A stretch of DNA of 27,986 bases, from the NCBI GenBank assembly GCA_903925435.1, contig CAIYFF010000072.1, positions 1 to 27,986 on the forward strand, in the 5' to 3' direction. The position numbers and the translations under genes are program-made. Each line of letters begins with the position of its first letter. Position 1 is the stretch's first letter. The notes beneath the pieces are model-generated. The model did not search any database and was not told the DNA's origin. It saw nothing but the letters and a program-made list of their open reading frames with translations. This document shows, piece after piece, positions 12,398-24,654 of this stretch. Origin of the DNA: an uncultured Planctomycetota bacterium (GTDB lineage: Bacteria; Planctomycetota; UBA1135; UBA2386).

Positions 12398-14356
12398 TCA
12401 TCGCGAGTAGCGCTCCCGTTCGTGCGCGGAAATCGCCGCGGCAAGCCGCTGCATCGCGTCGGCCGCGATCGGCATGGCCTGCGCGCGCAGTAGCAGTTCG
12501 CGCGGCGTCTCCCCGTGCACAAGTTGAACGTGCGCGCGCCGCATCGCCGCGTCGAGCGCGCGGACTGTGAGCGGAATGCGCTGGTTCTTCACATGGCGTC
12601 GCCAGAACGACAGCATCGAAAGCAATGCGAGCAAAGCCGCGCATTCGATCGGGCTCGTGAGGAATGCGACCACGGTCTCGCCGAGGCTGCGGCCGATCGC
12701 CGAGAACAACGCCGCGCGCTCGGCTTCGCCGAAGCCGGTCACGTTGGCCCACGCTTCTTCGAGCCACTTGCGCATGTCGGCGAGCATGCCTGACTCATGG
12801 GCGCCGCCTTCGTCCGCCATTGCGGGCGTTGCGTCGAGCGTGGTCCAGCCGGCCCCAGGCAGCCACGCCTCGACCCACGCGTGCGCGTGACGCTGGCGGA
12901 CGACGTAGGCGCCGGACGATGCGTCGCGTTCTTGCGCGAGGTAGCCGCCGATCACGCGGCACGGGATCGACTGCATGCGCAGCACGAGGCACAGCGCCGT
13001 GGCGAAGTACTCGCAGTGGCCGCCGCCCGAACCGAGCAAGAAGTCGTCGAGGCTGCGAGCCGCCGCGGGCGTGCCGGGCAGCGCGTAGCGACGTTCTGCC
13101 GACAGCCAATCGCGCGCGTGCTCGGCGCGTCGCTGTGGGCTCGCGTCCGCTGGCAGCGTGCGGCGAAGTTCTTCTTCGAGAGCAACCAGCGGCGATGGCA
13201 GTCGTTCTGGCGTTTGCGTCAGGATCGCGCGCGCAGCGGGCGTCAGTTCTCCAAACGCCGCGACCTCGCTCGCGCGCACCGAGAAGCGAACTTCGCGCGG
13301 CCCTTCGCCGAACTCCACGAGCGCCACGACGCCATCCGCCTTCGGATCGACCAGCGCGCCAGCGGTGAAGTGCAAGTCGAAGGACTCGGCTTCCAGCGGC
13401 AAGAAGAGTCGATTGGCGCTCGTGTCGAGCAGCGTGACGGTGACCGCATCGCTGTCGTTGGCTGCTGCTGCGTCGCGACGACGGCCTTCGTCGCGCGACG
13501 AGGCGCGAACCCAGCGAGTGGCCGAGGTCCCGCTCCACGGAATGTCCGTCGCAGTGCGCGTTCCGAATTCGCGGATGCGGAACGGCTGCCAGCCCGCGCC
13601 ATCGAAGTTGACGAACGTGGCGCCGCGCCAATGCGTCGGCGTGTTCGCTTCGCCCTTGCTCGCGATGCGCATCACCGGCGCGTCGCTGAGTGTCGGAGTC
13701 GTCGAGCGGTCGATCCGCACTTGGTCTGCGAACGCGACCACGGGCGCGCCGCCAAACTGCATGGAGTCGCCGAGCCAGCCCTCGCGCTTGAAGTCGCGTG
13801 GCCACAGCGCGAACACCAAAGCGGTCGCGAGCAGCGCTGCGGCGCTGCGCCAGAGCCCGTTCTGAATCAGCGCGCGCACGGCGCCGCGCGGTTGTTCACC
13901 GCTGCGCGGAAGGCACACGTGCAACTGCAGCGCGAGCACGAGCAGCGCCGCATACGCGAAGAACGCAATCGACCAGCCGAGGTCGCCGCAGAAGAAGCTC
14001 GTGACGAACGCGATGAGGAACGAGTTGAAGAACAACAGGTCCGGGCGCTGCTTCTGGCCGATGTTGTTGAGCAGGTGCACTTGGCACAGCGCGGAGAGCA
14101 GCAGCCCGTCTTCGAGCATGTGCAGCAACCCGCTGGTGACCGCGTCGTGCACGAGGAACGCAAACGAAGCGAGGACTGCGGCGTTCCAGATGCCTCGATA
14201 GACCGGGCTCTCGGCGAACCGCGCAAACAGCGGCGTCGCGGCAGCGCAGGACCACAAGGCCCACAGCCACGGCGAAGTCACGGTGCCGGTCAACTGCACG
14301 AACGCGAGGTCGAGCAGCACGATGCCCAAGAACAGCCAGCGCAATGCACTAGGCAT
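12398..14356 (-). CDS. Transglutaminase-like domain membrane protein (DUF3488/TgpA-type), 652 aa
   Basis: About 6 N-terminal TM helices; HWRGATFVNFDG..W; catalytic triad motifs GHCEYFATA, HAWVE, LDATP; C-terminal TM and ETPRE motif. Start overlaps the DUF58 stop by 8 bp. Confidence 0.9.
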   Translation of the reverse strand: MPSALRWLFLGIVLLDLAFVQLTGTVTSPWLWALWSCAAATPLFARFAESPVYRGIWNAAVLASFAFLVHDAVTSGLLHMLEDGLLLSALCQVHLLNNIGQKQRPDLLFFNSFLIAFVTSFFCGDLGWSIAFFAYAALLVLALQLHVCLPRSGEQPRGAVRALIQNGLWRSAAALLATALVFALWPRDFKREGWLGDSMQFGGAPVVAFADQVRIDRSTTPTLSDAPVMRIASKGEANTPTHWRGATFVNFDGAGWQPFRIREFGTRTATDIPWSGTSATRWVRASSRDEGRRRDAAAANDSDAVTVTLLDTSANRLFLPLEAESFDLHFTAGALVDPKADGVVALVEFGEGPREVRFSVRASEVAAFGELTPAARAILTQTPERLPSPLVALEEELRRTLPADASPQRRAEHARDWLSAERRYALPGTPAAARSLDDFLLGSGGGHCEYFATALCLVLRMQSIPCRVIGGYLAQERDASSGAYVVRQRHAHAWVEAWLPGAGWTTLDATPAMADEGGAHESGMLADMRKWLEEAWANVTGFGEAERAALFSAIGRSLGETVVAFLTSPIECAALLALLSMLSFWRRHVKNQRIPLTVRALDAAMRRAHVQLVHGETPRELLLRAQAMPIAADAMQRLAAAISAHERERYSR

Positions 14357-15305
14357 GGGCGGCTCCTCCTGCGCAAACGGTCAGCAGTTGCGCGCGCTGC
14401 GATGCGGCGGGTGGCGCAACTGCGTCGTGTGGCAACGTCGAGGCTGTCGCGAGCCAACGCAGCAACGGCGCGGGCTCAGGTCGATCCGCATCGAGCGCGA
14501 GGTCTGCGTCCTGGCTGCGCAGTCGCAGCGCCTGCTTCGTCTTTGCTGCATCGAGCACAAGCCGCGTCGCGATCGACAGCGCGCGTTCGAGCGACGCTGC
14601 GTCGCAGCGACGATCGATGACGAGGTCGACGCCTTCGCCGCCATGGCGCTCGTACTCCTTGACGATCGGCGAGCCGCGACGCGCGGTCGCCTTCCAGTGG
14701 ATCTGGCGCAGGCTGTCGCCATCGCGCCAGTCGCGGAGGCCCGCGAGGGACTCCTCGTCGCCGCCAGGTGGGCGATTGCCATCGCCGCCGCGGCCACGTT
14801 GCGAGGGGTCTTCGGGCGCAGCGGGCGTTGGATACGCGATTGCTTCACCGCGAACGGTGACGACCTGCTCCGCCATGCAAACGCCAAACGGATGACGCGA
14901 GCGAATGCGCAGTCGTTCGATCGCATGTGCGCCGCGCGGCATGCCCTTCAGCGCAGCCGTCACGGTCTCGCCGTCGGAGACGACCGGCAGTTCGGCAATG
15001 CAGATCGACTTGCCCGCTGCGTCCGCATGCACGAGCACGCCAAACGCGCGCCGGCCTTTTGGCATCGTGATGCGCACGCGCATCGGATGCGGCGATCCTG
15101 CGGGCGCAGGCTCGATCGCAAGCAGCTCCGCGCTCGCGCCGCGCAAGTTGCGCCATGAGCCGGTGACGCCGAGCGCGCCGAGGATGGCGAGGAACGACGT
15201 CAGCAGGAAGAACAGGTTGGAGTATGGCGTCGCGAAGAACAGCAACACTACGGCTGCGAAGAACAACCCGCCCTTCGCTCCAAGGCCTGTCGGCGAGAGT
15301 CGCAT
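14349..15305 (-). CDS. DUF58 domain-containing protein, 318 aa
   Basis: N-terminal TM pair with NLFFL; RG...I....SRHPFG; LRDWRDGDSLRQIHWKATARRG.PIVKEYE; LERALSIA. Sits directly downstream of MoxR. Confidence 0.9.
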   Translation of the reverse strand: MRLSPTGLGAKGGLFFAAVVLLFFATPYSNLFFLLTSFLAILGALGVTGSWRNLRGASAELLAIEPAPAGSPHPMRVRITMPKGRRAFGVLVHADAAGKSICIAELPVVSDGETVTAALKGMPRGAHAIERLRIRSRHPFGVCMAEQVVTVRGEAIAYPTPAAPEDPSQRGRGGDGNRPPGGDEESLAGLRDWRDGDSLRQIHWKATARRGSPIVKEYERHGGEGVDLVIDRRCDAASLERALSIATRLVLDAAKTKQALRLRSQDADLALDADRPEPAPLLRWLATASTLPHDAVAPPAASQRAQLLTVCAGGAAHA

Positions 15306-15309
15306 CGGC

Positions 15310-16248
15310 TCACAGTGGAACGGCGGTCTTCGCGATCACTTCCTGCAGCATCGCAGCAGCGCTGCCGCCGCCGCGAACGAACATGCGGTGCGCGAGCACG
15401 GGCATGGCGAGCGCCTTCAGGTCGTCCGGCAACACGTAGTCGCGGCCTTCGAGCCATGCGCGCGCACGAGCTGCGCGCAGCCACATCAACGCGGCGCGCG
15501 GACTCGCGCCGAGCGCGACCTCGGTGTGCTCGCGCGTCGCCGCGACGATGCGCAGCACGTACTCGGCCACCGTTTCGTGCACGACAACCTCGGCTGCAGC
15601 AGCTTGCGCCGCGAGCAGTTGGTCGCGCGAGATCACGGGGTGCACGGAGCGCAGCGAGCTCTCCGCATCGCGGCCGGTGTAGAGCGCGAGTTCTTGCGCG
15701 CTGTCTGGATAGCCCAGCTCGATGCGGACGAGGAAACGATCGAGCGCCGCTTCCGGCATCGGATACGTGCCGTGGAACTCGATCGGGTTGCGCGTCGCAA
15801 ACACATGGAACGGCGCGCCGAGGTCCATCGTCTTGCCTTCGAGCGAGACCGAGCCGGACTCCATCGCTTCGAGCAAGCACGACAAGGTGCGCGGGCTCGT
15901 GCGGTTGATCTCGTCCGCGAGCACGAGGTTGGAGAACAACGGGCCTTCGACGAACTCGAACTGGCGCTCGCGCTCGCGCCAAACTGCGCTGCCGAGGATG
16001 TCGCTCGGCATCAGGTCATTGGTGAACTGGATGCGGCGGAAGCTGCAGTCGATGCTCGCGGCGATCGTGCGCGCGAGCAGCGTCTTGCCGATGCCAGGCT
16101 TGCCGTCGAGCAGCACGTGGCCCCGCGCGATGAGTGCGCAGAGGATCGCTTCGAACGCGTCCGAAGGGACGGCGACGATGTCGCGGACATTGCGTTCGAG
16201 GGTCGTGCGCAGCGCCTTTGGCGCTACGGCTGCAGTGCTCAGTGCCAA
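15310..16248 (-). CDS. moxR: MoxR-family AAA+ ATPase, 312 aa
   Basis: TTG start with GGAGG SD (16257-16261); Walker A GKPGIGKT; RIQFT.DL.PSDI.G; Walker B LADEINR; NPIE..GTYP.PEA.LDRF; GASPRA; GRDYV.PDD.K.LA.PVLAHR. Confidence 0.93.
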   Translation of the reverse strand: MALSTAAVAPKALRTTLERNVRDIVAVPSDAFEAILCALIARGHVLLDGKPGIGKTLLARTIAASIDCSFRRIQFTNDLMPSDILGSAVWRERERQFEFVEGPLFSNLVLADEINRTSPRTLSCLLEAMESGSVSLEGKTMDLGAPFHVFATRNPIEFHGTYPMPEAALDRFLVRIELGYPDSAQELALYTGRDAESSLRSVHPVISRDQLLAAQAAAAEVVVHETVAEYVLRIVAATREHTEVALGASPRAALMWLRAARARAWLEGRDYVLPDDLKALAMPVLAHRMFVRGGGSAAAMLQEVIAKTAVPL

Positions 16249-18172: not shown

Positions 18173-18898
18173 TCAGATCGCGCCTGTGCGCTGCAGGAAC
18201 GCTTCCATGCGCGCGAGGATGTCGCCGATCTCTTGATTGAGGCGGTGGTTGCCGTTCGGCACGACCCACAGCTCCTTGTGTCCAATGGGCAGCGCTGCGA
18301 AGAACGCTTCGCTGAGGCGCGTCGGCACCAGTTCGTCGTGGGTGCCGTGTGCGACAAACACTGGCATCGGCAGCTTGTGGGGCAGCGATTCCTCGTCGTG
18401 CGAAGCCGCATCCATCAGCGCGCGTTCGTGCACGAAGAACTGCTTGCCCTCGCTGGTCTGCATGCGACCTTGCGCATCGAGCCGTTGGCGCATGCGCGGC
18501 AAGAAGCCGAATGCGGGCGCGAGCAACACAAGCGCAACGACATCGTTGGGCCGCGACGCCGCGAGGTGCGCGGCGACGAGCGCGCCGAGGCTCGATCCGA
18601 CGAGGATCGAGGGCCCGGCGAGGTCGAGCACGAGGCTGGCATCGACGAGCAGTTCGGACATCGTCACGACGCCGATCGTGCCCGTCGAATCGCCGTGGCC
18701 GCGGAAGTCGAATCGCGTGAACGCGCGGCCTTGTCGCTGCGCGTGCGCAAACAGCGCGTTGCTCTTCTCCCCTTGGCGCACCGAGCCGAGCCCGTGCAAG
18801 AACACGTAGCCCGGCGAGGTCCCTGCGCGCCGTTCGACCACCACGCGCTCGCCGGGCGCGGGCTGTAGGACCGTGGTGGTCGTCGGCGCAGGCTTCAC
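18173..18898 (-). CDS. Alpha/beta hydrolase (ABHD10-like esterase), 241 aa
   Basis: GTG overlapping the greA TGA (GTGA 18895-18898); FLHGLGS...G.K; RFDFRGHGDS.G; nucleophile elbow VGSSLG; HGTHDELVP; NGNHRL. Confidence 0.88.
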   Translation of the reverse strand: MKPAPTTTTVLQPAPGERVVVERRAGTSPGYVFLHGLGSVRQGEKSNALFAHAQRQGRAFTRFDFRGHGDSTGTIGVVTMSELLVDASLVLDLAGPSILVGSSLGALVAAHLAASRPNDVVALVLLAPAFGFLPRMRQRLDAQGRMQTSEGKQFFVHERALMDAASHDEESLPHKLPMPVFVAHGTHDELVPTRLSEAFFAALPIGHKELWVVPNGNHRLNQEIGDILARMEAFLQRTGAI

Positions 18899-21078
18899 AC
18901 GCGTTCGATGACGTCGATGCGCACGGTAACCGGACCGGCGGGCGACGGAACTTCGCCGGACTCGCCGACCGACAGGCCGAGGATGCCCTTCGCGATCGGA
19001 GCGCGGTAGTTGATCGTGTGGTCGTCGATGACGTCCCACGGACCGAGCACCGCGTAGGTGCGCTGCTTGCCGTTCGCTTCCTCGGTGAAGGTCACGCGCG
19101 TGCCGGGTGCGACCACATCGCCAGTGACAGCCTGGTCCTCGATCAGCTTCGCCATGCGGATCTGCTGATCCATGTCGGTGGCGCGCGTCGTCAGGTTGCG
19201 CTGCTCCTCCATGGCGGACTCCCACTCGCTGTTCTCGCTGAGATCGCCGAGCGAAGCCGCGGCGCCGATGGCCGTGCTGTTCGCTGGGATCTTCTCTTCG
19301 ACGAGGACGCGGTAGTCGTCCTTGATGCGCTTGAGGCCGGCGATCGTCGTGAAGACCGCGTCCTCGCGCTCCCAGAACGGCTTCTCGTTCTTCGCGGCGA
19401 GTTCCGGATACTTGTCGGCGACCGCGCGGAGGATCAGGTTGCTGATCTCCGAAGGGAAGTCCTCGCCGCCGCGCTCGCTGATGCCGAGGTAGTTGCCAAG
19501 GTCGTCCTTGCTGATCGTCGCCAGCGAGCGGTGCAGGAAGCCGCGCTTGCCGGTGAGCAGGCTCGTGAGGCGCGACAGCAGTCGGCCCTGGAACACGTTG
19601 CCCTTGCGCTCGGCGGAGAGCACGCGCGCGAGGTGCATCAGCACGCGGCCCACGGTGACGTCATCCGGCTTGTCGTCGCGCTTGTCGAACGTGCCGTCCG
19701 AGAACGCGCGGCCGAGCAGGTAGGTCAGCAACGGGAAGCGGCGGGGGTATGGCGCGACGCGGTCCCAGACGTCCATCAGTCGTTCGCCGCACTTGGCGTC
19801 GACGATCGACTGCACGACGTTCTCGACCACCGAGTTCGGCACATCGGGCAGCACGGACAGCGTGCGGTCGATCCAGTGCTCACCGATCGCTTCGGGCAGC
19901 AGCTTCACTGCGTGCTCGCGCGACAGTTGCGTGGCGAGGCGATCCAGCGCCGCTGCATGCAGCGCGCCATCCGGGCCGACCAGCAGCGCGCGGAGTTCGA
20001 CTGCCGCCGACGTGCTGCACTTCCGGCCGTGTTCCTCGAGGAACAGGATGCCGTCGAGGATGTGCGCGTGGTTGTCCTTCTTGTGGCCCAGGCTCTCGTC
20101 GACCGTCTTTTGAGCGACGTCGAGGATCTGAGCGCGGACTTCATCGTCCTGGCCGCGCGCGAGGTAGTCGCGCAGCACGGCGATGCGATCGCCGAGGCTG
20201 TTCTCGTGCTTGAGCGCCGCCGCTGCTTCTTCTGCGAGGCCCACTGGCCGGTCGCGCAACACGAAGGAGGGGCGCGTCGCGGTGCCTTCTGCCTTGAGCC
20301 ACGGATCCTTGGTCGCGGCGAGCTTCGCGCGCTTCCAGTAGCCGGCCCATGCCTTCTCCTCGATCACCGAGGGGATGAGCTCGTTCTTGAGTTGCTGGCT
20401 CGAGACCGTGCCGCGATAGAGCTTCGCGACGATGCGGATCAGTCGCGACGGATCCTTCTCGGCAAAGGTCTTGAGGTCCGCCATGCGCAGCAACTTCATC
20501 GCGCGCAGGTCCTCGGGATCGAGCGGCTTGAAGCGGTCGATCACCGTGTCGATGGGGAACGACTCCTTGCGGCCCGATGCGAACTGAACGGAGAGCTCGC
20601 CTTGCTCTGCTTGGAACTCGAGCACAACGCCCTCGCCCCAACCTGCCGCGTGGTAGACCACGTGGCCCTTGGTGAAGCGGCGCAGGCGGTCGAACTCGAG
20701 CAGCGCTTGCGCATTGACGGACGAACCGTCGATGCCGGCGCGCTGGCGCATCGCGTCCCACCAGTTCTCTTCCGAGAACTGCTGCTCCAGCAGTGCGAGC
20801 AGGCGCTTGGCGAGCGCTTCGTTGTGCGCTCCGCGCTTGACCACGCGCGTCGCGAGATCGATCGCTGGTATCAACGTCGAGGCCGAGGCAAGCGCCTCGA
20901 TCATCATGTTGGCCAGCGCGAACGCGCGCCCGGACTGGGCTTGGTCGCAGAGGCAGTCGACAACGCCCAGATACTGCTGGATCGCGTCGGGTTTGGGCGT
21001 CTTGACCGCCTGCTCCCAGGCGGTTTCGAGCGAATCGAGCTGGAGGGAACGTGCGAGGTGGACGAGGTCGGTCGTCAA
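18895..21078 (-). CDS. greA: Long-form GreA/GreB-family transcript cleavage factor (about 575-aa N-terminal extension plus GreA domain); start uncertain, TTG 21078 preferred
   Basis: C-terminal domain has IPAN..AI..A...GDLSENSEW.SA.EEQ, V..GT.V, Y.VLGPWD, INY.APIAKGILG..VG. The N-terminal part is a continuous well-biased ORF. Sequence upstream of 21078 looks non-coding. Confidence 0.88.
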   Translation of the reverse strand: MTTDLVHLARSLQLDSLETAWEQAVKTPKPDAIQQYLGVVDCLCDQAQSGRAFALANMMIEALASASTLIPAIDLATRVVKRGAHNEALAKRLLALLEQQFSEENWWDAMRQRAGIDGSSVNAQALLEFDRLRRFTKGHVVYHAAGWGEGVVLEFQAEQGELSVQFASGRKESFPIDTVIDRFKPLDPEDLRAMKLLRMADLKTFAEKDPSRLIRIVAKLYRGTVSSQQLKNELIPSVIEEKAWAGYWKRAKLAATKDPWLKAEGTATRPSFVLRDRPVGLAEEAAAALKHENSLGDRIAVLRDYLARGQDDEVRAQILDVAQKTVDESLGHKKDNHAHILDGILFLEEHGRKCSTSAAVELRALLVGPDGALHAAALDRLATQLSREHAVKLLPEAIGEHWIDRTLSVLPDVPNSVVENVVQSIVDAKCGERLMDVWDRVAPYPRRFPLLTYLLGRAFSDGTFDKRDDKPDDVTVGRVLMHLARVLSAERKGNVFQGRLLSRLTSLLTGKRGFLHRSLATISKDDLGNYLGISERGGEDFPSEISNLILRAVADKYPELAAKNEKPFWEREDAVFTTIAGLKRIKDDYRVLVEEKIPANSTAIGAAASLGDLSENSEWESAMEEQRNLTTRATDMDQQIRMAKLIEDQAVTGDVVAPGTRVTFTEEANGKQRTYAVLGPWDVIDDHTINYRAPIAKGILGLSVGESGEVPSPAGPVTVRIDVIERV

Positions 21079-21170
21079 AGTCAGACCATCCAGAAGGCGG
21101 TTGAGCGGCAGAAGGGCGGAGGAATGTAGCGACGACCTCGACGCCACGAAAGCCTGCGCACGCGGAAGGT

Positions 21171-21273
21171 CGCGTGGGTTCTGACCTTTCTCTCCCTCTC
21201 TTCTTCGTCCCACGCGCGTCGCGCGTCGCCGTTCCAGGCGCAGCAGCGATCGGGCTACGCGCCGGATCGCTGC
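21171..21273 (-). promoter_or_regulatory. Structured region upstream of greA: 8-bp stem around a 30-nt purine-rich loop, plus a 9-bp hairpin
   Basis: CGCGTGGG/CCCACGCG at 21171-21178/21209-21216 encloses the minus-strand loop ACGAAGAAGAGAGGGAGAGAAAGGTCAGAA; GCAGCGATC/GATCGCTGC at 21243-21251/21265-21273. Confidence 0.4.
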
Positions 21274-21286
21274 CGCAATCGACCGA

Positions 21287-21967
21287 TCACTCCGCGAGGC
21301 GGGCGATCAGCGTGCTGATGTCCGTAGTCGCGCAGGCTTCGTCGTAGGTCGCGAGTTCGACCTGGTCGAGCACTTCGTCCGGCGCGATCAGGATCACGTA
21401 GTACTCCTGTCCGTATTGGCGGCGGAACGCGACGATCTTCGGCAGGATCGGGTTTTTGAGGTCCTCGACGGTCTCGATCACGACGCTCTTGCCTTCGCGG
21501 CCGCGGCCGCGGAGCACGATCATCGGCGCGTAGGCCGCGACCTGCTTCTCCAGCACCGACACTTCGAAGTGCCGCGGCGTGTGGCTGTGCGCGACGCCGG
21601 CGTGGCCGAGGCGATCGCAGACGTTCTGCTCCAGCGAGCTCCCGAGCATGCGGCCGCCGCAGCGACCGTAGCCAAAGCCATGGCCGGCGCCGTGCACGCC
21701 GAGGACGTCATCCTCGTCGTCCATCGGTTGGAAGCCGCGCGGGATGTAGGCAGGCGGCTGCGGGCGCGCCGGGCGAGATGGCGACTTGGTGGTGCCGCGC
21801 TGCGCCATGGGCTGTGCTTTTGCTGGGCTCTTGCCGGCCTCGGGCTTCCTTGGCGTCGCCTTCTCCTCCTTCTTGGGAGCCGCTGGCTTGATGCGGGCGG
21901 TCTCCGTCTTGGCGGGCTTCTTGGCCTTGGGCTTCTGCGAGGACTTGCTGGGGGTCTTGGTGGGCAT
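21287..21967 (-). CDS. Hypothetical protein: Lys/Pro-rich disordered N-terminus plus degenerate PD-(D/E)xK nuclease-like domain, 226 aa
   Basis: ATG 21967; 15 Lys in the first 61 aa; C-terminal pattern SSLE..V...L...GV.....P..F.......YAPMIVL......VIETV aligns by eye with S..E...A..L...GI.Y.YEP..F....Y.PDF.L....IE.K. Confidence 0.8.
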   Translation of the reverse strand: MPTKTPSKSSQKPKAKKPAKTETARIKPAAPKKEEKATPRKPEAGKSPAKAQPMAQRGTTKSPSRPARPQPPAYIPRGFQPMDDEDDVLGVHGAGHGFGYGRCGGRMLGSSLEQNVCDRLGHAGVAHSHTPRHFEVSVLEKQVAAYAPMIVLRGRGREGKSVVIETVEDLKNPILPKIVAFRRQYGQEYYVILIAPDEVLDQVELATYDEACATTDISTLIARLAE

Positions 21968-22112
21968 ATTCGTTCGGCAGTCCTAGGTGGTTCTACGGCA
22001 GTGAGTTACGTCAGATGATGGCCGCTGTTTTGCCGCCATCGGTCCTGGTTTCCCGTCTGTCGAGTACCGCAGTCGGTTGGTCTGAACCCCCTCCGTGGAG
22101 ATTCGAGCGGAC

Positions 22113-22140
22113 ATTCTAGCGAGCGTTGCCATGGCGGGAA
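22113..22140 (-). promoter_or_regulatory. Candidate promoter TTCCCG-N16-TAGAAT for the long minus-strand gene run
   Basis: -10 is a 5/6 match, -35 is weak; lies in the divergent gap 21968-22264. Confidence 0.3.
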
Positions 22141-22264
22141 GGCCCCCAGGCATGGCCGGATGGCTTAGGCAGAGCGCCCGAGTCGCTGCACTGCGGCCTT
22201 TCCCCCCTCAAGAACGCGACTTCAGTCCGCCGATCCAGCCCCGTCAATCATCAGGCCTAGGGGA

Positions 22265-23569
22265 ATGGACGACATACGGCTCGGCTCGCTTCTGCTCGAG
22301 AGCAAGATCATCCGGGAAGCCGACCTCGAGAAGTGTCTCGAGGTCCAGGCTCTCACCGGCAACACCCGCACGGTGGGGCAGATCCTGCTGGAGCAGGGCC
22401 GCATCGACCGCGCCACGCTCGACCGGCTCGTCCAGCTGCAGGAAGCGCGCTGCGCCGTTCGCGACATTGCGCCGCCCGATGCCGCCGAGGTGATGAGCGA
22501 GAGCCTGCTGGAGTCCGCGGTCCGCAGCGGCGCGCGCGACCTCGTGATCAGCGAGGGCCGGCCGGTGATGGTCCGCCAGGCCGCGAATTGGCGGCCGCTC
22601 ACGAGCGAGCCCGTGCGGAGCCCCGAGGTCTGGGACTTCGTTCGCCGCGAGATGGGCGCCTCAGTGCTCGAAGAGTTGGCGGACCGGCAGTTCGTCGTTC
22701 GCGACCTGAAGCGTCCGGGCGTGTGCCGCGGCCGCATCACCGCGATGCGCCACACCGACGGCGTTGCCGTGATGGCTGAATTGCGGCCTGAGACGGTCGC
22801 GACGATGACCGAACTCGGCGTGCCCGACGCGGTGTCGTCGTTGCTCACCAATGCTCGAGGCCTCGTGCTGTTTGTCGGCGAGCGCGGCGAAGGCCGCAGC
22901 GAACTGCTCGCGAGCGTGCTCGCGGAGATGGCCAAGGAGCAAGGCCGCTACGTGGTGTCGCTCGACGACACGCTCGATGCGCCCCTGCCGCAGGGCGGAG
23001 CGCTCGTGACGCGACGTCGCATCGGCGAACACGCGACGGACTATGCATCGGGCCTGCGCACCACGCTGCGCGAGGACCCGGATGCGATCCTGCTCGGCTC
23101 GGTGGACGACGCGGACACGTTCGATCTCGCGCTCCGCGCGGCGGAAGGCGGCCGCCTCGTCGTCGGTTGGATGAGCGCGAAGTCGGTGGTCGCATGCCTG
23201 CGCCGCGGGCTGTGCTTCTACCCCGCGGTGGATCAACCGCGCGTGCGTCAGAGCCTCGCCAACGCATTGCGCGCAGTCTGCGTGCGGCATCTCGTCGTCA
23301 GCAAGGCGGGCGACAGCATGGTGCCCGTCACAGAGTGGATGTCGGTAGGCGACGCCGCGCGCGACGTGCTGCGCCATGGAGAACTCGACAGCCTCACGAT
23401 GCTGATGCGCGTGGAAGGCAACGACAACGGCTCGTCGCTCGACCAGCGACTGTGCGTGCTTGCGAAGGACTCGCAGATCCGCGTCGAGGACGCCTATGCG
23501 CGCGCGGAGGACAAGGCATGGTTGCTCGATCGACTGGGCACCGGATCGAACCAGGGGGTGACGCTGTGA
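22265..23569 (+). CDS. PilT/PilU-like secretion ATPase homolog, degenerate, with N-terminal tandem MshEN-like motif, 434 aa
   Basis: SD-like AGGGGA then ATG; PilT layout (DL.I..G.P.MVR, GLVLF.G..G.G, LREDPDAILLG, ALRAAE.G.LV, VR..LA..L.AV....L, EW......R..L..G, SLDQ.L..L.....I..EDA...A.D). Walker A reads GERGEGRS and Walker B reads ILLGS. Confidence 0.85.
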   Translation: MDDIRLGSLLLESKIIREADLEKCLEVQALTGNTRTVGQILLEQGRIDRATLDRLVQLQEARCAVRDIAPPDAAEVMSESLLESAVRSGARDLVISEGRPVMVRQAANWRPLTSEPVRSPEVWDFVRREMGASVLEELADRQFVVRDLKRPGVCRGRITAMRHTDGVAVMAELRPETVATMTELGVPDAVSSLLTNARGLVLFVGERGEGRSELLASVLAEMAKEQGRYVVSLDDTLDAPLPQGGALVTRRRIGEHATDYASGLRTTLREDPDAILLGSVDDADTFDLALRAAEGGRLVVGWMSAKSVVACLRRGLCFYPAVDQPRVRQSLANALRAVCVRHLVVSKAGDSMVPVTEWMSVGDAARDVLRHGELDSLTMLMRVEGNDNGSSLDQRLCVLAKDSQIRVEDAYARAEDKAWLLDRLGTGSNQGVTL

Positions 23570-24654
23570 TGGACAGCAAGGAACTCGAGCGCATGCTCGC
23601 GTCGATGACGCGCGCCGGCGCATCTTCGCTGCACATTCTGTCCGGCCACCCGCCGTGCGTTCGCGTGCAGCGTCGCTTCGTGAAGTCGGAGCACCCCGTG
23701 GTCGAACCCGCGGAGGTCGAAGCGCTGCTCGCGGACTTGCTGTTCGATGACCATCGGCAACGGCTCGCAGAATGCGGGCAAGTCGACGTTCTCTACGTCG
23801 CGCGCACCGGCCAGCGCTTCCGCACGACGGTGCTGCGTCAGGAGAATGGGCTCGCGATGTTGATGCGTCCGATTCCCGAGGCGCCGCCGCAGTTGCAGGA
23901 CCTGCAGCTTCCGCAGCAAGTCGCTTCGCTCGTCGAGCTGCAGAGTGGCCTCGTCGTGATCGCTGGCTCGTTTGGCTCGGGCAAGAGCGCCACGCTCGCA
24001 GCGCTCGCCGACGCGCTCAATCGCACGACGTCGCGCCACATCGTGACCATCGAGGAGCCGATCGAGTTCCTCCATCCGCAGGGCCGCGCGTTGTTGCATC
24101 AACGCGAAGTGGGCGCGCACGTCCGCGACGCCGCTGCTGGCGTGCGGCAAGCGATGCGCCTTGGCGCCGAAGTGTTGTTCGTGAGCGAGATCCAAGACGC
24201 GGCGGTGCTCGATGCTGCGCTCGACGCAGCCGAGGCGGGTTGCCTCGTGTTTGCGGGTTTCGATGCCAGCTCGGTGGTCAGCGCATGCGCGGGGATCGAG
24301 AAGCTCGCGTCGCAAGACCAACGCGAACGCGTGCGCGCGCGATTCTCTGCGTCGATGCGCGCGGTGACCGCGCAGACGCTGCTGCCGTGCGCGCACCAGC
24401 AGGGCCGCGTGCCGATGGTCGAAGTGCTCACCGACAACTCCGCGGCGCAAACGGCGATTCGCGATGGGCGCGTCGATGAGTTGCCCGCGATCATGCATCG
24501 ATGCCGCGGCCTCGGCATGCAGACCGTCGATTCGGCTCTGCGCGGCTTGCTCGCGCGCCATCTCATCACGCCCGAAGAGGCGATGCAGCACGCGGTGCAG
24601 CGCGACCAGGTGCTCGCGCGCGCGACGGCGGGCGCTGGCGTGCCGGGTCGGTGA
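23569..24654 (+). CDS. PilT/PilU-like secretion ATPase homolog, partly degenerate, 361 aa
   Basis: TGATG overlap with the previous gene; ASSLHI..G.PP.VRV, RFR, MRPIP, GLVVIAGSFGSGKSATLAA, HIVTIEEPIEFLH, QREVG, V.EIQD, AAEAGCLV, RVP.VEVL, AIRDG, GMQT.D..L. Confidence 0.9.
   Translation: MDSKELERMLASMTRAGASSLHILSGHPPCVRVQRRFVKSEHPVVEPAEVEALLADLLFDDHRQRLAECGQVDVLYVARTGQRFRTTVLRQENGLAMLMRPIPEAPPQLQDLQLPQQVASLVELQSGLVVIAGSFGSGKSATLAALADALNRTTSRHIVTIEEPIEFLHPQGRALLHQREVGAHVRDAAAGVRQAMRLGAEVLFVSEIQDAAVLDAALDAAEAGCLVFAGFDASSVVSACAGIEKLASQDQRERVRARFSASMRAVTAQTLLPCAHQQGRVPMVEVLTDNSAAQTAIRDGRVDELPAIMHRCRGLGMQTVDSALRGLLARHLITPEEAMQHAVQRDQVLARATAGAGVPGR

Follow-up and report, generated by a model that had tools for sequence, protein, structure and literature searches.

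A predicted PilT-fold pseudo-ATPase with an MshEN_N-type domain and its probable PilT-like partner in a family of Planctomycetota

Published control of type IV pili by c-di-GMP operates via extension ATPases (MshE, PilB, PilF) or adaptors (FimX, PilZ), with PilT-type proteins listed as non-binders, V. cholerae PilT among them (PMC10333796). In MshE (5HTL), Geobacter and Myxococcus PilB and Thermus PilF (GSPII), an N-terminal four-helix domain of the c-di-GMP-binding type, built from two motifs, is tethered ahead of an ATPase fold of the PilT/VirB11 superfamily. PilT and PilU, including those of tandem pilT-pilU arrangements in which one of the two adjacent PilT-like genes may depend on the other, keep all four catalytic boxes and carry no MshEN domain. 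In FimX-PilZ-PilB and other degenerate-enzyme receptors, a catalytically dead fold relays the c-di-GMP signal to a pilus-type ATPase. The alpha3beta3 ring of F1/V1-ATPases alternates catalytic and non-catalytic RecA-like subunits, paralogs by duplication of which one kept catalysis and the other the fold and interfaces. Two described gene pairs are also close in layout. In M. xanthus, MXAN_6705 and MXAN_6706 encode neighbouring PilT paralogs that are conserved throughout the Myxococcales; the N-terminus of MXAN_6705 is the longer one and is called disordered, with MshEN and c-di-GMP unmentioned, and deletion of MXAN_6706 causes a partial S-motility defect (PMC13584747). In Geobacter, GSU0435 (mshE) encodes an MshEN-bearing superfamily protein directly upstream of the PilT-like gene pilT3, away from the main pil cluster, and has been treated as a putative polymerisation ATPase gene with no clear co-transcription (PMC5065972).

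Here, we analyse a pair of adjacent genes, A and B, in a window of 27,986 nt, the whole stretch examined, from an uncultured Planctomycetota bacterium (GCA_903925435.1, contig CAIYFF010000072.1). Gene A shares the tethered two-motif domain with MshE, PilB and PilF, but its body is PilT-type and lacks N1/MshEN_C and the PilB-specific parts, it is predicted to be catalytically dead, and it lies outside any pilus operon. Its fold is that of PilT and PilU, from which it differs in both its boxes and its MshEN domain. The pairing recalls MXAN_6705/MXAN_6706 as published, with MXAN_6705 a possible ortholog of A, although those proteins have all boxes intact. The Geobacter GSU0435-type upstream protein is described as PilB/GspE-like, whereas gene A is PilT-like throughout. 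In FimX-type receptors, the dead GGDEF/EAL folds bind the ligand themselves, whereas in gene A the dead fold would be the ATPase and the ligand site a separate MshEN domain. F1/V1-ATPases belong to a different superfamily, and a ring assembled from A and B is only hypothesised. Across the literature searched, we found no paper combining PilT, Planctomycetes and c-di-GMP and no description of an MshEN pseudo-ATPase/PilT pairing; neither a PilT-type MshEN protein nor MXAN_6705 was found in the main text and the searched parts of the supplement of Wang et al. (2016).

Domain layout of gene A

The following features concern gene A and its upstream region.

22265..23569, + strand: gene A, MshEN_N plus PilT-fold pseudo-ATPase (predicted), 434 aa, from translation, profiles, AF2 model and orthologs
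22195..22245, + strand: promoter-like box TCAAG-N16-GCCGATCC, ~30-57 nt upstream of the gene A start, conserved in the family
22265..22462, + strand: MshEN_N-type four-helix domain, residues 1-66, from NF053729, family profile and fold matches 5HTL/8PFA
22277-22348, + strand: MshEN motif 1, residues 5-28, as the published 24-residue consensus with one deviation, Lys for Gly at position 10
22349-22369, + strand: MshEN spacer, residues 29-35, 7 aa
22370-22441, + strand: MshEN motif 2, residues 36-59, starting T-V-G (family consensus P-[LI]-G)
22463..22498, + strand: flexible linker, ~residues 67-78, with pLDDT <50 at 67-77 and an alignment variable in length and sequence
22499..23545, + strand: PilT-like N- and C-terminal ATPase-fold domains, residues 79-427, from coordinates, motif table and conserved-position comparison

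Gene A translates without stops into 434 aa, and its GC3 of 0.85 is on par with the neighbouring genes. The body of the protein is PilT-like and not PilB-like. TIGR01420 (pilT_fam) aligns end to end with residues 79-417 (E 3.8e-58; 339 of 343 model positions), with a score of 197.4 bits that lies below the curated cut-off of 319.1, and Pfam T2SSE matches at 1.3e-16. A PilB/GspE-type body was considered and rejected, as those models cover only ~130 C-domain residues (1e-10 to 1e-14). The best PDB sequence match is PilU (3.8e-38), and the AF2 model (pLDDT 85.9) contains the complete two-domain PilT fold, an N-terminal PAS-like and a RecA-like C-terminal domain, which Foldseek superposes on Geobacter PilT4 6OK2 (E 1.4e-34, TMt 0.92, rmsd 1.9 Å). 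The structural core and most ring-forming surfaces are retained.

A sequence-only reading of this DNA had noted two tandem 24-aa MshEN motifs in gene A, with Gly replaced by Lys in the first and a 7-aa gap between them, and coordinates, profiles and fold all bear this out. We compared the protein with the MshEN consensus of two tandem 24-residue RLGxx[LVI][LVI]xxG[LVI][LVI]xxxxLxxxLxxQ motifs separated by a 5-residue spacer in a 53-residue unit, and found both motifs in tandem. The spacer has 7 residues against 5 in the standard unit; that of Geobacter PilB is also 7 residues long and aligns without gaps. Both the T-V-G start of motif 2 and the P-[LI]-G of the family are permitted by the relaxed MshEN motif of Wang et al. 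(2016). The profile search that the same reading had proposed returned a match of NCBIfam NF053729 ('c-di-GMP_motif') to residues 5-57 (E 1e-6), at 28.4 bits, or 34.0 bits for the isolated domain, under the curated cut-off of 38. NF053729 matches 29 of 29 family members (best E 6.5e-14). A family profile of the first 66 residues hits the solved MshEN/GSPII domains of PilF (3.7e-13), Geobacter PilB (6.9e-9) and V. cholerae MshE 5HTL (1.3e-7), and the top 13 PDB fold matches of an AF2 model of residues 1-66 are all MshEN/GSPII c-di-GMP domains. This model superposes on 5HTL with TMq 0.77, rmsd 1.0 Å and 36% identity; the domain is small, and the fold E-values are accordingly weak (0.05-1.5).

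The 31-sequence family alignment shows no variation at R5, L6, G7, L10, L11, L25, Q28, G38 or Q59, of which L11, Q28 and Q59 drop to at least 90% in the 29-sequence N-terminal alignment. The ligand-contact positions of V. cholerae MshE reported by Wang et al. (2016) correspond to R5, L6, G7, L21, L25, Q28, G38, L52 and Q59 of gene A, all nine of which are invariant or at least 90% conserved in its family. The MshEN region also has the lowest dN/dS within the gene (0.09-0.14). Based on homology in profile and model comparisons, we assign the N-terminal domain to the MshEN_N type, and we predict that it binds c-di-GMP. An MshEN_C subdomain is absent; the low-confidence linker (residues 67-77) leads into the PilT N-domain from ~residue 79.

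Degenerate catalytic boxes, selection and descent

The catalytic boxes and one retained helix of gene A lie as follows.

22877-22903, + strand: Walker A, GERGEGRSE, residues 205-213, departing from GxxGxGK[ST]
22961-22978, + strand: Asp box, LDDTLD, residues 233-238, departing from IEDPIE
23087-23110, + strand: Walker B, ILLGSVDD, residues 275-282, departing from GE[ML]RD with its catalytic Glu
23150-23179, + strand: His box, GRLVVGWMSA, residues 296-305, departing from GHLV..TLHT with its two His
23354-23383, + strand: AIRNLIRE-like helix, kept

In gene A, the Walker A Lys, the Asp box, the Walker B Glu and both His-box histidines are all replaced, so that the earlier claim of four broken boxes stands, save that its end of Walker A (22900) fell one codon short. 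The Walker A Lys is missing from 34 of 34 family orthologs examined (Arg, Ile, Leu or Ser in its place), as are the Asp-box Glu, the Walker B Glu (Asp, Ser or Asn instead) and both histidines. The catalytic Glu-to-Ser exchange in Walker B, also proposed from the sequence, holds for the gene in the window and not across the family, where most orthologs have Asp. A replacement signature, GERGxGR / DD / [AG]D[VI]G / GGRLV..LDA, is common to the orthologs: their Asp box reads VDDE-P and their Walker B region [AG]D[VI]G, where the window's gene has LDDTLD and GSVDD, and the His box is mostly GGRLV..LDA with a few [ECS]G variants. The former active site is now filled by newly conserved residues. These replacements suggest that the PilT-fold body of gene A has lost ATP hydrolysis and, in some orthologs, probably ATP binding as well.

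Single-copy orthologs of gene A occur in 64 of 91 genomes (30 of 41 genera) of one Planctomycetota GTDB family, with an intact frame and the same substitutions. The dN/dS is ~0.16-0.22 for gene A and 0.14-0.19 for gene B. Since purifying selection and the same substitutions extend across a whole bacterial family, gene A is a pseudo-ATPase and not a pseudogene: catalytic residues are gone, the frame is intact, and selection across species is purifying, the features that define a pseudoenzyme. The sequence-only reading had likewise judged that the gene is not decaying, and the orthologs with shared substitutions and dN/dS below 1 that it suggested looking for were thus found. Among 31 high-quality family genomes, 8 are without the pair, which is therefore dispensable.

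Gene A and gene B descend from pairs of a catalytically intact MshEN-PilT and a PilT. The MshEN-bearing A proteins are monophyletic (UFBoot 100), the A proteins of the planctomycete family group with P0144 and the B proteins with the partner of P0144 (support 100 in each case), and the A and B trees mirror each other. In the distant A proteins L018-L020, L023, P0157, P0166, P0178, P0200 and P0238, all four catalytic boxes are intact, and intact MshEN-PilT + PilT pairs were found in other Planctomycetota, Myxococcota and Acidobacteriota. As the distant pairs are catalytically intact, one half of an old two-ATPase module has become a pseudo-ATPase here. In the Myxococcota, where the MshEN-PilT family is very large, a second PilT directly follows an MshEN-like PilT at loci L084 and L110. 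A locus search with full-length intact proteins recovered mostly canonical PilT, with full-length MshEN-PilT in 5 of 80 loci. No MshEN on a PilT body came up in the literature searched, yet the intact pairs in three phyla show that the combination is not rare in nature. Fused double-PilT proteins were considered as Rosetta-stone evidence and set aside, most being non-orthologous to A and B; P0290, an A-B-like fusion of 818 aa, comes from one metagenomic sequence only and could be a frameshift artefact.

Gene B and the genomic neighbourhood

Gene B and its boxes have these coordinates.

23569..24654, + strand: gene B, PilT-like partner, 361 aa, its ATG overlapping the gene A TGA by one base
23965-23994, + strand: Walker A, kept
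24046-24069, + strand: Asp box, kept
24172-24198, + strand: Walker B with Glu, kept
24238-24273, + strand: His box, replaced by conserved GCLV..[ED]A[GS]S

Like A (197 bits), gene B scores below the pilT_fam cut-off of 319 (289.7 bits, rounded 290), and both proteins form their own clades apart from PilT and PilU. Both His-box histidines are gone from gene B and the second Asp-box Glu is sometimes lost too; it may therefore be a poor ATPase. In 37 of 37 extracted pairs, gene B comes straight after A at a distance of -4 to +24 nt, and a B ortholog is present in all 64 family genomes that have A, while 26 of the 27 without A show only paralog-level PilT matches. Losses in the two proteins are complementary: a universally conserved N-domain Arg (position 172) is gone from A and kept by B, whereas a conserved C-domain Arg (R314 of A) is gone from B and kept by A in 15 of 15. 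Adjacency, co-occurrence and co-diversification of A and B are thus obligatory, although inside one family adjacency and co-occurrence are partly due to shared descent. A small membrane-anchored ORF lies upstream of A in most relatives and is missing from the window; it is therefore not an obligatory part of the module.

All 34 family loci have a TCAAG-N16-N[CT]CGAT box before A, against none of four distant loci (0.1 expected from shuffles), and in 24 of the 34 it reads G[CT]CGAT. Flagellin genes of relatives carry TCAAG-N14-[TG]CCGA.CAT, and we take both boxes to resemble the sigma-28 consensus TAAAG-N14-GCCGATAA. Downstream of B, 25 of the 40 family loci fetched have a highly conserved flagellin gene in the same orientation, usually 140-430 nt away and, at two loci, ~1.9-2.0 kb away. 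Flagellin does not adjoin the pair in the genus of the window and is found on other contigs, at contig ends in the genome analysed here. No pilus, secretion or platform gene occurs in the 28-kb window or adjoining the pair in relatives; the other conserved neighbours are a GreA-like protein, an ABC ATPase, signal peptidases and LepA. The 297-nt spacer upstream of A was also considered as a riboswitch or known RNA (no Rfam match at gathering or E<=1) and as a structured RNA (fold no better than shuffles, z +1.2), and both were rejected; its conserved stretch is single-copy in the genome. A simple scan for sigma-70 promoters and terminators gave nothing useful, and a genome-wide TCAAG-N16-CGAT scan for a regulon was uninformative because most of its 74 matches lie within coding sequence. 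The 62%-complete assembly contains three PilB+PilC-type loci, three canonical PilT genes and two GGDEF proteins.

Proposed function and alternatives

We propose, with an even chance of being right on these comparisons, that gene A is a c-di-GMP-sensing, non-catalytic regulatory partner of the downstream PilT-type ATPase B. That it is a signal-sensing partner of B is probable, since it has lost the ATP-splitting residues, begins with a c-di-GMP-sensor domain and is translated together with B; because the B start codon overlaps the A stop, the two would be made in fixed proportion. B, which keeps the Walker A Lys, Asp-box Glu and Walker B Glu, would form the catalytic half, and A would most likely assemble with it, either in a mixed ring, such as an alternating A3B3, or ring on ring. 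Open and closed conformations with C3 symmetry are known for PilT, and an alternating A3B3 would fit them. Binding of c-di-GMP to the tethered sensor domain of A would then shift the ring conformation and so alter the ATPase activity of B or its docking on a membrane platform. The target may be flagellar motility, or a type IV pilus or T2SS-type platform whose genes lie elsewhere in the genome. The regulatory subunit of a pilus motor inferred from the sequence has accordingly gained a candidate partner in gene B, which the sequence-only reading of A did not mention, while its pilus context is weakened by the lack of a pilus gene nearby and by the flagellin next to the pair in most relatives. 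The narrower version, an obligate mixed A-B ring (e.g. alternating A3B3) in which three dead c-di-GMP-binding subunits gate three live ones and which is expressed with late flagellar genes, we regard as rather doubtful. No demonstration of hetero-oligomers of PilT-family ATPases was found in the literature searched, and in M. xanthus a PilT-PilU interaction was not seen by two-hybrid (PMC13584747).

Several features count against a sensor partner: the NF053729 score below its curated cut-off, Lys for the turn-forming Gly in motif 1, Thr or Pro instead of Arg at the start of motif 2, and the absence of MshEN_C. Together with the 7-aa spacer in place of 5, they would suit a degenerate MshEN that no longer binds c-di-GMP, comparable to the XpsE N-domain, and instead mediates protein interaction or dimerisation or binds another ligand; non-binding MshEN-like domains are known in XpsE and in PilB of Xanthomonas and P. 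aeruginosa. However, conservation in the protein peaks at the Leu triads, both Gln and the RLG/xxG turns, the first-position Pro and non-Gly residues of close homologs fit the relaxed motif of Wang et al., the Geobacter PilB spacer also has 7 aa without gaps, and the model fits onto c-di-GMP-bound MshE with an rmsd of 1.0 Å, which makes loss of binding quite unlikely. It is harder still to credit that A acts alone as a c-di-GMP-dependent inert ring, a plug or clutch competing with PilB/PilT at the type IV pilus base. The full PilT fold with its AIRNLIRE-like helix and the several PilB/PilC platforms and canonical PilT genes of the genome would allow it, but the strict adjacency to B with its start-on-stop overlap, the joint occurrence or loss, the mirrored trees and the complementary residue losses speak against it. 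Recent decay of an active PilT into a pseudogene in one strain has the loss of all catalytic motifs as its sole point and is refuted by the intact frame and same substitutions in 64 genomes of 30 genera, the dN/dS of ~0.2, the normal codon bias and the new conserved residues in the former active site.

The pair could instead belong to a flagellar regulon and, in place of a pilus motor, regulate swimming or the switch from swimming to attachment, in the manner of the flagellar brakes that c-di-GMP controls. The flagellin after B in 25 of 40 loci and the fixed-spacing box before A in 34 of 34, akin to the TCAAG-N14 box of flagellin, point this way. However, flagellin is not adjacent in the window's own genus, the spacer of the A box is 2 nt longer than in the sigma-28 consensus and the flagellin box, and the intact pairs of other phyla are not beside flagellin. 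The remaining conserved neighbours are functionally unrelated, and the synteny within the family may therefore simply be inherited. We know of no PilT-family protein acting on flagella, and consider this reading unlikely, though it is compatible with a c-di-GMP-sensing partner of B should the pair act on the pili of flagellated swarmer cells.

The widespread MshEN-PilT + second PilT-like module points to an undescribed coupling of a second messenger to retraction-type ATPases. In the planctomycete lineage, the sensor-bearing subunit gives up catalysis yet stays under selection, the pattern expected of a regulatory subunit in a mixed ring. Were A and B to form such a ring, the PilT/VirB11 superfamily would have its first heteromeric motor, and with it a natural experiment on the division of labour among subunits of hexameric secretion ATPases. 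A second messenger would then act directly on the retraction-type side of a filament machine, timing the passage from swimming to surface attachment. Such a ring would likewise supply a concrete hypothesis for the adjacent PilT paralogs, so far unexplained, of the genetically tractable Myxococcus. Automatic annotation labels such proteins 'twitching motility protein PilT' or 'TadA', names that are misleading for a dead subunit.

A conserved PilT-type protein with degenerate catalytic boxes

The best-supported reading of our results is that gene A (22265-23569, +) encodes a predicted c-di-GMP-sensing pseudo-ATPase acting with the co-translated PilT-like ATPase encoded by gene B (23569-24654, +). 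Translation of A gives an uninterrupted frame of 434 codons, and the normal codon bias attributed to it in the sequence-only reading agrees with its GC at codon positions (0.73/0.49/0.85), which is the same as in other real genes of the window (67% G+C). Each feature which that reading had listed for A was recovered in its place, the sole slip in its coordinates being the end of Walker A, which lies at 22903 and not at 22900.

Sequence features of gene A (+ strand)
Residues 5-28: MshEN motif 1
Residues 29-35: spacer between the MshEN motifs
Residues 36-59: MshEN motif 2
Residues 205-213 (DNA end 22903): degenerate Walker A
Residues 233-238: degenerate Asp box
Residues 275-282: degenerate Walker B
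Residues 296-305: degenerate His box

The body of A is PilT-type, as had been proposed, since positions 3-341 of the 343 in TIGR01420 (PilT/PilU) align to residues 79-417 (3.8e-58; 197 bits, well under the cut-off of 319), PilU and PilT are its best matches by sequence in the PDB, the A model fits Geobacter PilT4 with a TMt of 0.92, and PilB and GspE models cover the central C-domain only.

A word-indexed search returned 193 relatives of about 430 aa and 42-94% identity, of which the named ones are all from Planctomycetota MAGs and are annotated as 'PilT', 'T2SS/T4P/T4SS ATPase' or 'TadA'. Within the window's GTDB family, 64 of 91 genomes carry the ortholog, each in one copy (23/31 high-quality genomes, 30/41 genera), and the six genomes sampled from the other families of the order lack it. 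In the 31-sequence alignment and in 34 loci, a conserved signature that differs from the catalytic sequence occupies the former catalytic positions: G-E-R-G-x-G-R-x-E at Walker A, V-[VL]-D-D at the Asp box, E-D-P-D..[AG]-D-[VI]-G at Walker B and E-G-G-R-L-V..L-D-A at the His box. The Walker A Lys position is Ile, Leu or Ser in a few lineages, and positive charge is therefore dispensable there. Within-genus pairwise dN/dS was 0.16-0.22 for A and 0.14-0.19 for B (NG86, rough estimates at such GC3). Substitutions common to the family orthologs, together with this dN/dS, exclude recent decay and uphold the earlier view that A is no decaying pseudogene; we conclude that the observation holds and that A is a functional gene.

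The N-terminal MshEN-type domain

A profile match to the tandem MshEN motif was obtained in part: the 53-position NCBIfam model NF053729 ('c-di-GMP_motif') aligns to residues 5-57 with an E-value of 1e-6, but it scores 28 bits, or 34 when the domain is taken alone, short of the curated cut-off of 38. A profile of 29 orthologous N-termini matched, among solved structures, MshEN/GSPII domains and little besides, including all three GSPII repeats of Thermus PilF (3.7e-13), Geobacter PilB (6.9e-9), V. cholerae MshE 5HTL (1.3e-7) and c-di-GMP-bound PilF-GSPIIB crystals. Geobacter PilB aligns to the A N-terminus over 59 residues without gaps and also has a 7-residue spacer, so that this length, compared with 5 residues in MshE, is not unique to A. 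Models of NfrB, a c-di-GMP-activated glycosyltransferase, were matched by 29/29 A-family N-termini. AlphaFold places four helices in the domain (3-12, 18-30, 37-44 and 49-65), both when the whole protein and when residues 1-66 alone are modelled; for residues 1-66, MshEN/GSPII domains account for 13/13 top PDB matches, the best being ligand-bound MshE (TMq 0.77, rmsd 1.0 A, 56 columns).

According to Wang et al. 2016, the two guanines are held by R-L-G turns, Leu triads and two Gln; across the A family these residues vary little or not at all, and dN/dS is lower in the N-terminal segment (0.09-0.14) than elsewhere in the protein. In motif 1 of A, Lys replaces the turn Gly, which is Gly in most orthologs, and in motif 2 the first Arg is changed to Thr or Pro, of which Pro is permitted by the relaxed motif of that study. 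The MshEN_C subdomain is absent from A. Taken together, we regard c-di-GMP binding by A as likely. Carriers of MshEN described by Wang et al. 2016 are extension ATPases, glycosyltransferases, response regulators and uncharacterised domains, and a PilT-type MshEN protein was not found in its main text and the searched parts of its supplement; a 2023 review table gives PilT as a non-binder of c-di-GMP (PMC10333796).

The co-translated partner and the origin of the pair

A Pfam search of the whole assembly identified a second T2SSE match directly 3' of A. This gene, B, to which the sequence-only reading made no reference, begins with an ATG at 23569 that overlaps the TGA of A by one base, and encodes a 361-aa protein (pilT_fam, 290 bits) that retains Walker A (GSFGSGKS), the Asp box (TIEEPIEF) and the Walker B Glu (SEIQD), with GCLV..FDAS as its His box. 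Across family B, the Walker A Lys and first Asp-box Glu are invariant, the Walker B Glu is retained in most, and a conserved ESGCLV..[ED]A[GS]S stands in place of the His box. The two genes are adjacent in 37/37 extracted pairs with gaps of -4 to +24 nt, and a B ortholog (at least 235 bits) occurs in all 64 A-bearing family genomes; among the 27 A-less genomes, 26 have paralog-level matches only (31-36% identity) and one is borderline. Since these genomes are kin, the co-occurrence is no independent statistical test.

Distant relatives of A were sought by searching 1.8 billion cluster representatives exhaustively with HMMER. Full-length matches (429-450 aa, 26-34% identity) have the same N-terminal motifs; the Walker A, Asp, Walker B and His boxes are all intact in several of them, and others are intermediate. 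A second PilT-like gene lies directly 3' in four Planctomycetota genome loci from other families and in all three metagenomic contigs. A full-length MshEN-PilT gene with intact boxes and a PilT-like gene behind it are also found in Myxococcota (L084, L110), where the MshEN-PilT branch is very large, and in another Planctomycetota MAG (L072); of two Thermoanaerobaculia loci, L066 has the downstream gene and L119 ends too near A to show a partner. From 64 sequences hand-chosen from family and distant loci and canonical PilT representatives, we inferred a maximum-likelihood tree (LG+G4, 347 columns).

Support for clades in the tree (UFBoot)
All MshEN-bearing proteins: 100
A orthologs with degenerate boxes: 98
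A orthologs with degenerate boxes plus intermediate P0144: 100
Family B plus the partner of P0144: 100

These supports and the mirror-image subtrees of A and B indicate that the pair is ancient, and the sensor-bearing A appears from its sequences to have lost catalysis stepwise in the window's lineage. Comparison at positions with 85% or higher conservation among intact PilT-like proteins shows that A retains its structural core, along with several arginines of the N-domain; a further N-domain Arg, universally conserved, is gone from A and present in B, and a conserved C-domain Arg is gone from B and present in every A ortholog. Such complementary losses would be expected if each protein supplied a different half of shared interfaces, as we infer from these residues.

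No B-type partner keeps the first His-box His: even beside an intact A, Cys or a hydrophobic residue stands at that position (G[ILVMC]LV), which marks this as an old signature of the B lineage, older than the catalytic loss in A. In one metagenomic pair, the PilT-like partner of an intact MshEN-PilT (L059, 5446-6894) bears an added C-terminal PilZ domain, giving a predicted c-di-GMP receptor in both subunits. Tandem double PilT cores in one polypeptide of 708-818 aa were also observed (P0141, P0142, P0145, P0152, P0158, P0242, P0290); the first half of P0242 has a degenerate Walker A (GNRGSGRS) and the second is intact, and P0290 resembles an A-B fusion, but with one metagenomic sequence behind it that may be a frameshift artefact.

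The adjacent Myxococcus xanthus PilT paralogs MXAN_6705/6706 are conserved across Myxococcales; the N-terminus of MXAN_6705 is longer and supposedly disordered, and deletion of MXAN_6706 partly impairs S-motility (2026 PilU paper, PMC13584747). Going by this description, they are probably the intact counterpart of the A-B module. In Geobacter, a gene named 'mshE' directly precedes pilT3 (PMC5065972). The module is built from known parts and is no new kind of system; it is widespread and not confined to the window's genome, and is unrecognised in annotation and, within the literature searched, in papers.

Flagellin linkage and genomic neighbourhood

In 25 of the 40 family loci fetched, B is followed on its own strand by a flagellin gene, usually 140-430 nt away (loci L142-L181; L011 10718-11548 and L013 12233-13060). 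This flagellin is 73-100% identical across the family, whereas A is only 41-66% identical. In the window's own genus flagellin is not beside A-B, and flagellins are on other contigs. Directly 5' of A, a TCAAG-N16-N[CT]CGAT box at fixed spacing was detected in 34/34 family loci and 0/4 distant loci (0.1 in shuffles), and a TCAAG-N14-[TG]CCGA.CAT box precedes the flagellin start by about 100 nt. The sigma-28 consensus is TAAAG-N14-GCCGATAA. We take both boxes to resemble this consensus, the A-box spacer being 2 nt longer. In a genome-wide scan for TCAAG-N16-CGAT, most of the 74 matches fell within coding sequence. Given the flagellin adjacency and these boxes, the pair may belong to the late flagellar regulon, which would fit a role at the swim-to-attach transition with either pilus or flagellum as the target.

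Neighbours of the A-B pair in the window
12398-16248, - strand: cluster of a MoxR-type AAA ATPase (AAA_3), a DUF58 protein and a TgpA-like transglutaminase
18895-21213, - strand: 772-aa GreA-like fusion protein, with a GreA/GreB domain at its C-terminus behind a long N-terminal extension
21287-21967, - strand: 226-aa protein, transcribed divergently from A, with a counterpart at this position in relatives (219 aa in L011)
Neighbour of A-B: D-serine-dehydratase-like enzyme
Downstream side of the pair: ABC ATPase and signal peptidases

Gene order in this neighbourhood is kept in relatives at 42-46% identity. The 772-aa protein, which matches the NCBIfam 'transcript cleavage factor/unknown domain fusion protein', adjoins the pair throughout the family; its relatives bear an HTH_GRAD domain. 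The 226-aa protein has no Pfam or NCBIfam match, and the MoxR-DUF58-transglutaminase cluster is typical in make-up and kept in relatives (L011). In most relatives, A is directly preceded by an ORF of 163-184 aa whose product has a membrane helix at its N-terminus and an Ala-rich body; this ORF is absent from the window and its two closest species (21968-22264 compared with L031, L032, L033 and L034). In its place is a conserved non-coding stretch of about 130 nt that occurs once in the genome, matches nothing in Rfam and shows no significant fold.

No pilus or secretion genes lie within the window. The 62%-complete assembly contains three PilB+PilC-type loci, three canonical PilT genes, one Tad-like platform protein and two GGDEF proteins, and therefore both the c-di-GMP signal and candidate platforms exist.
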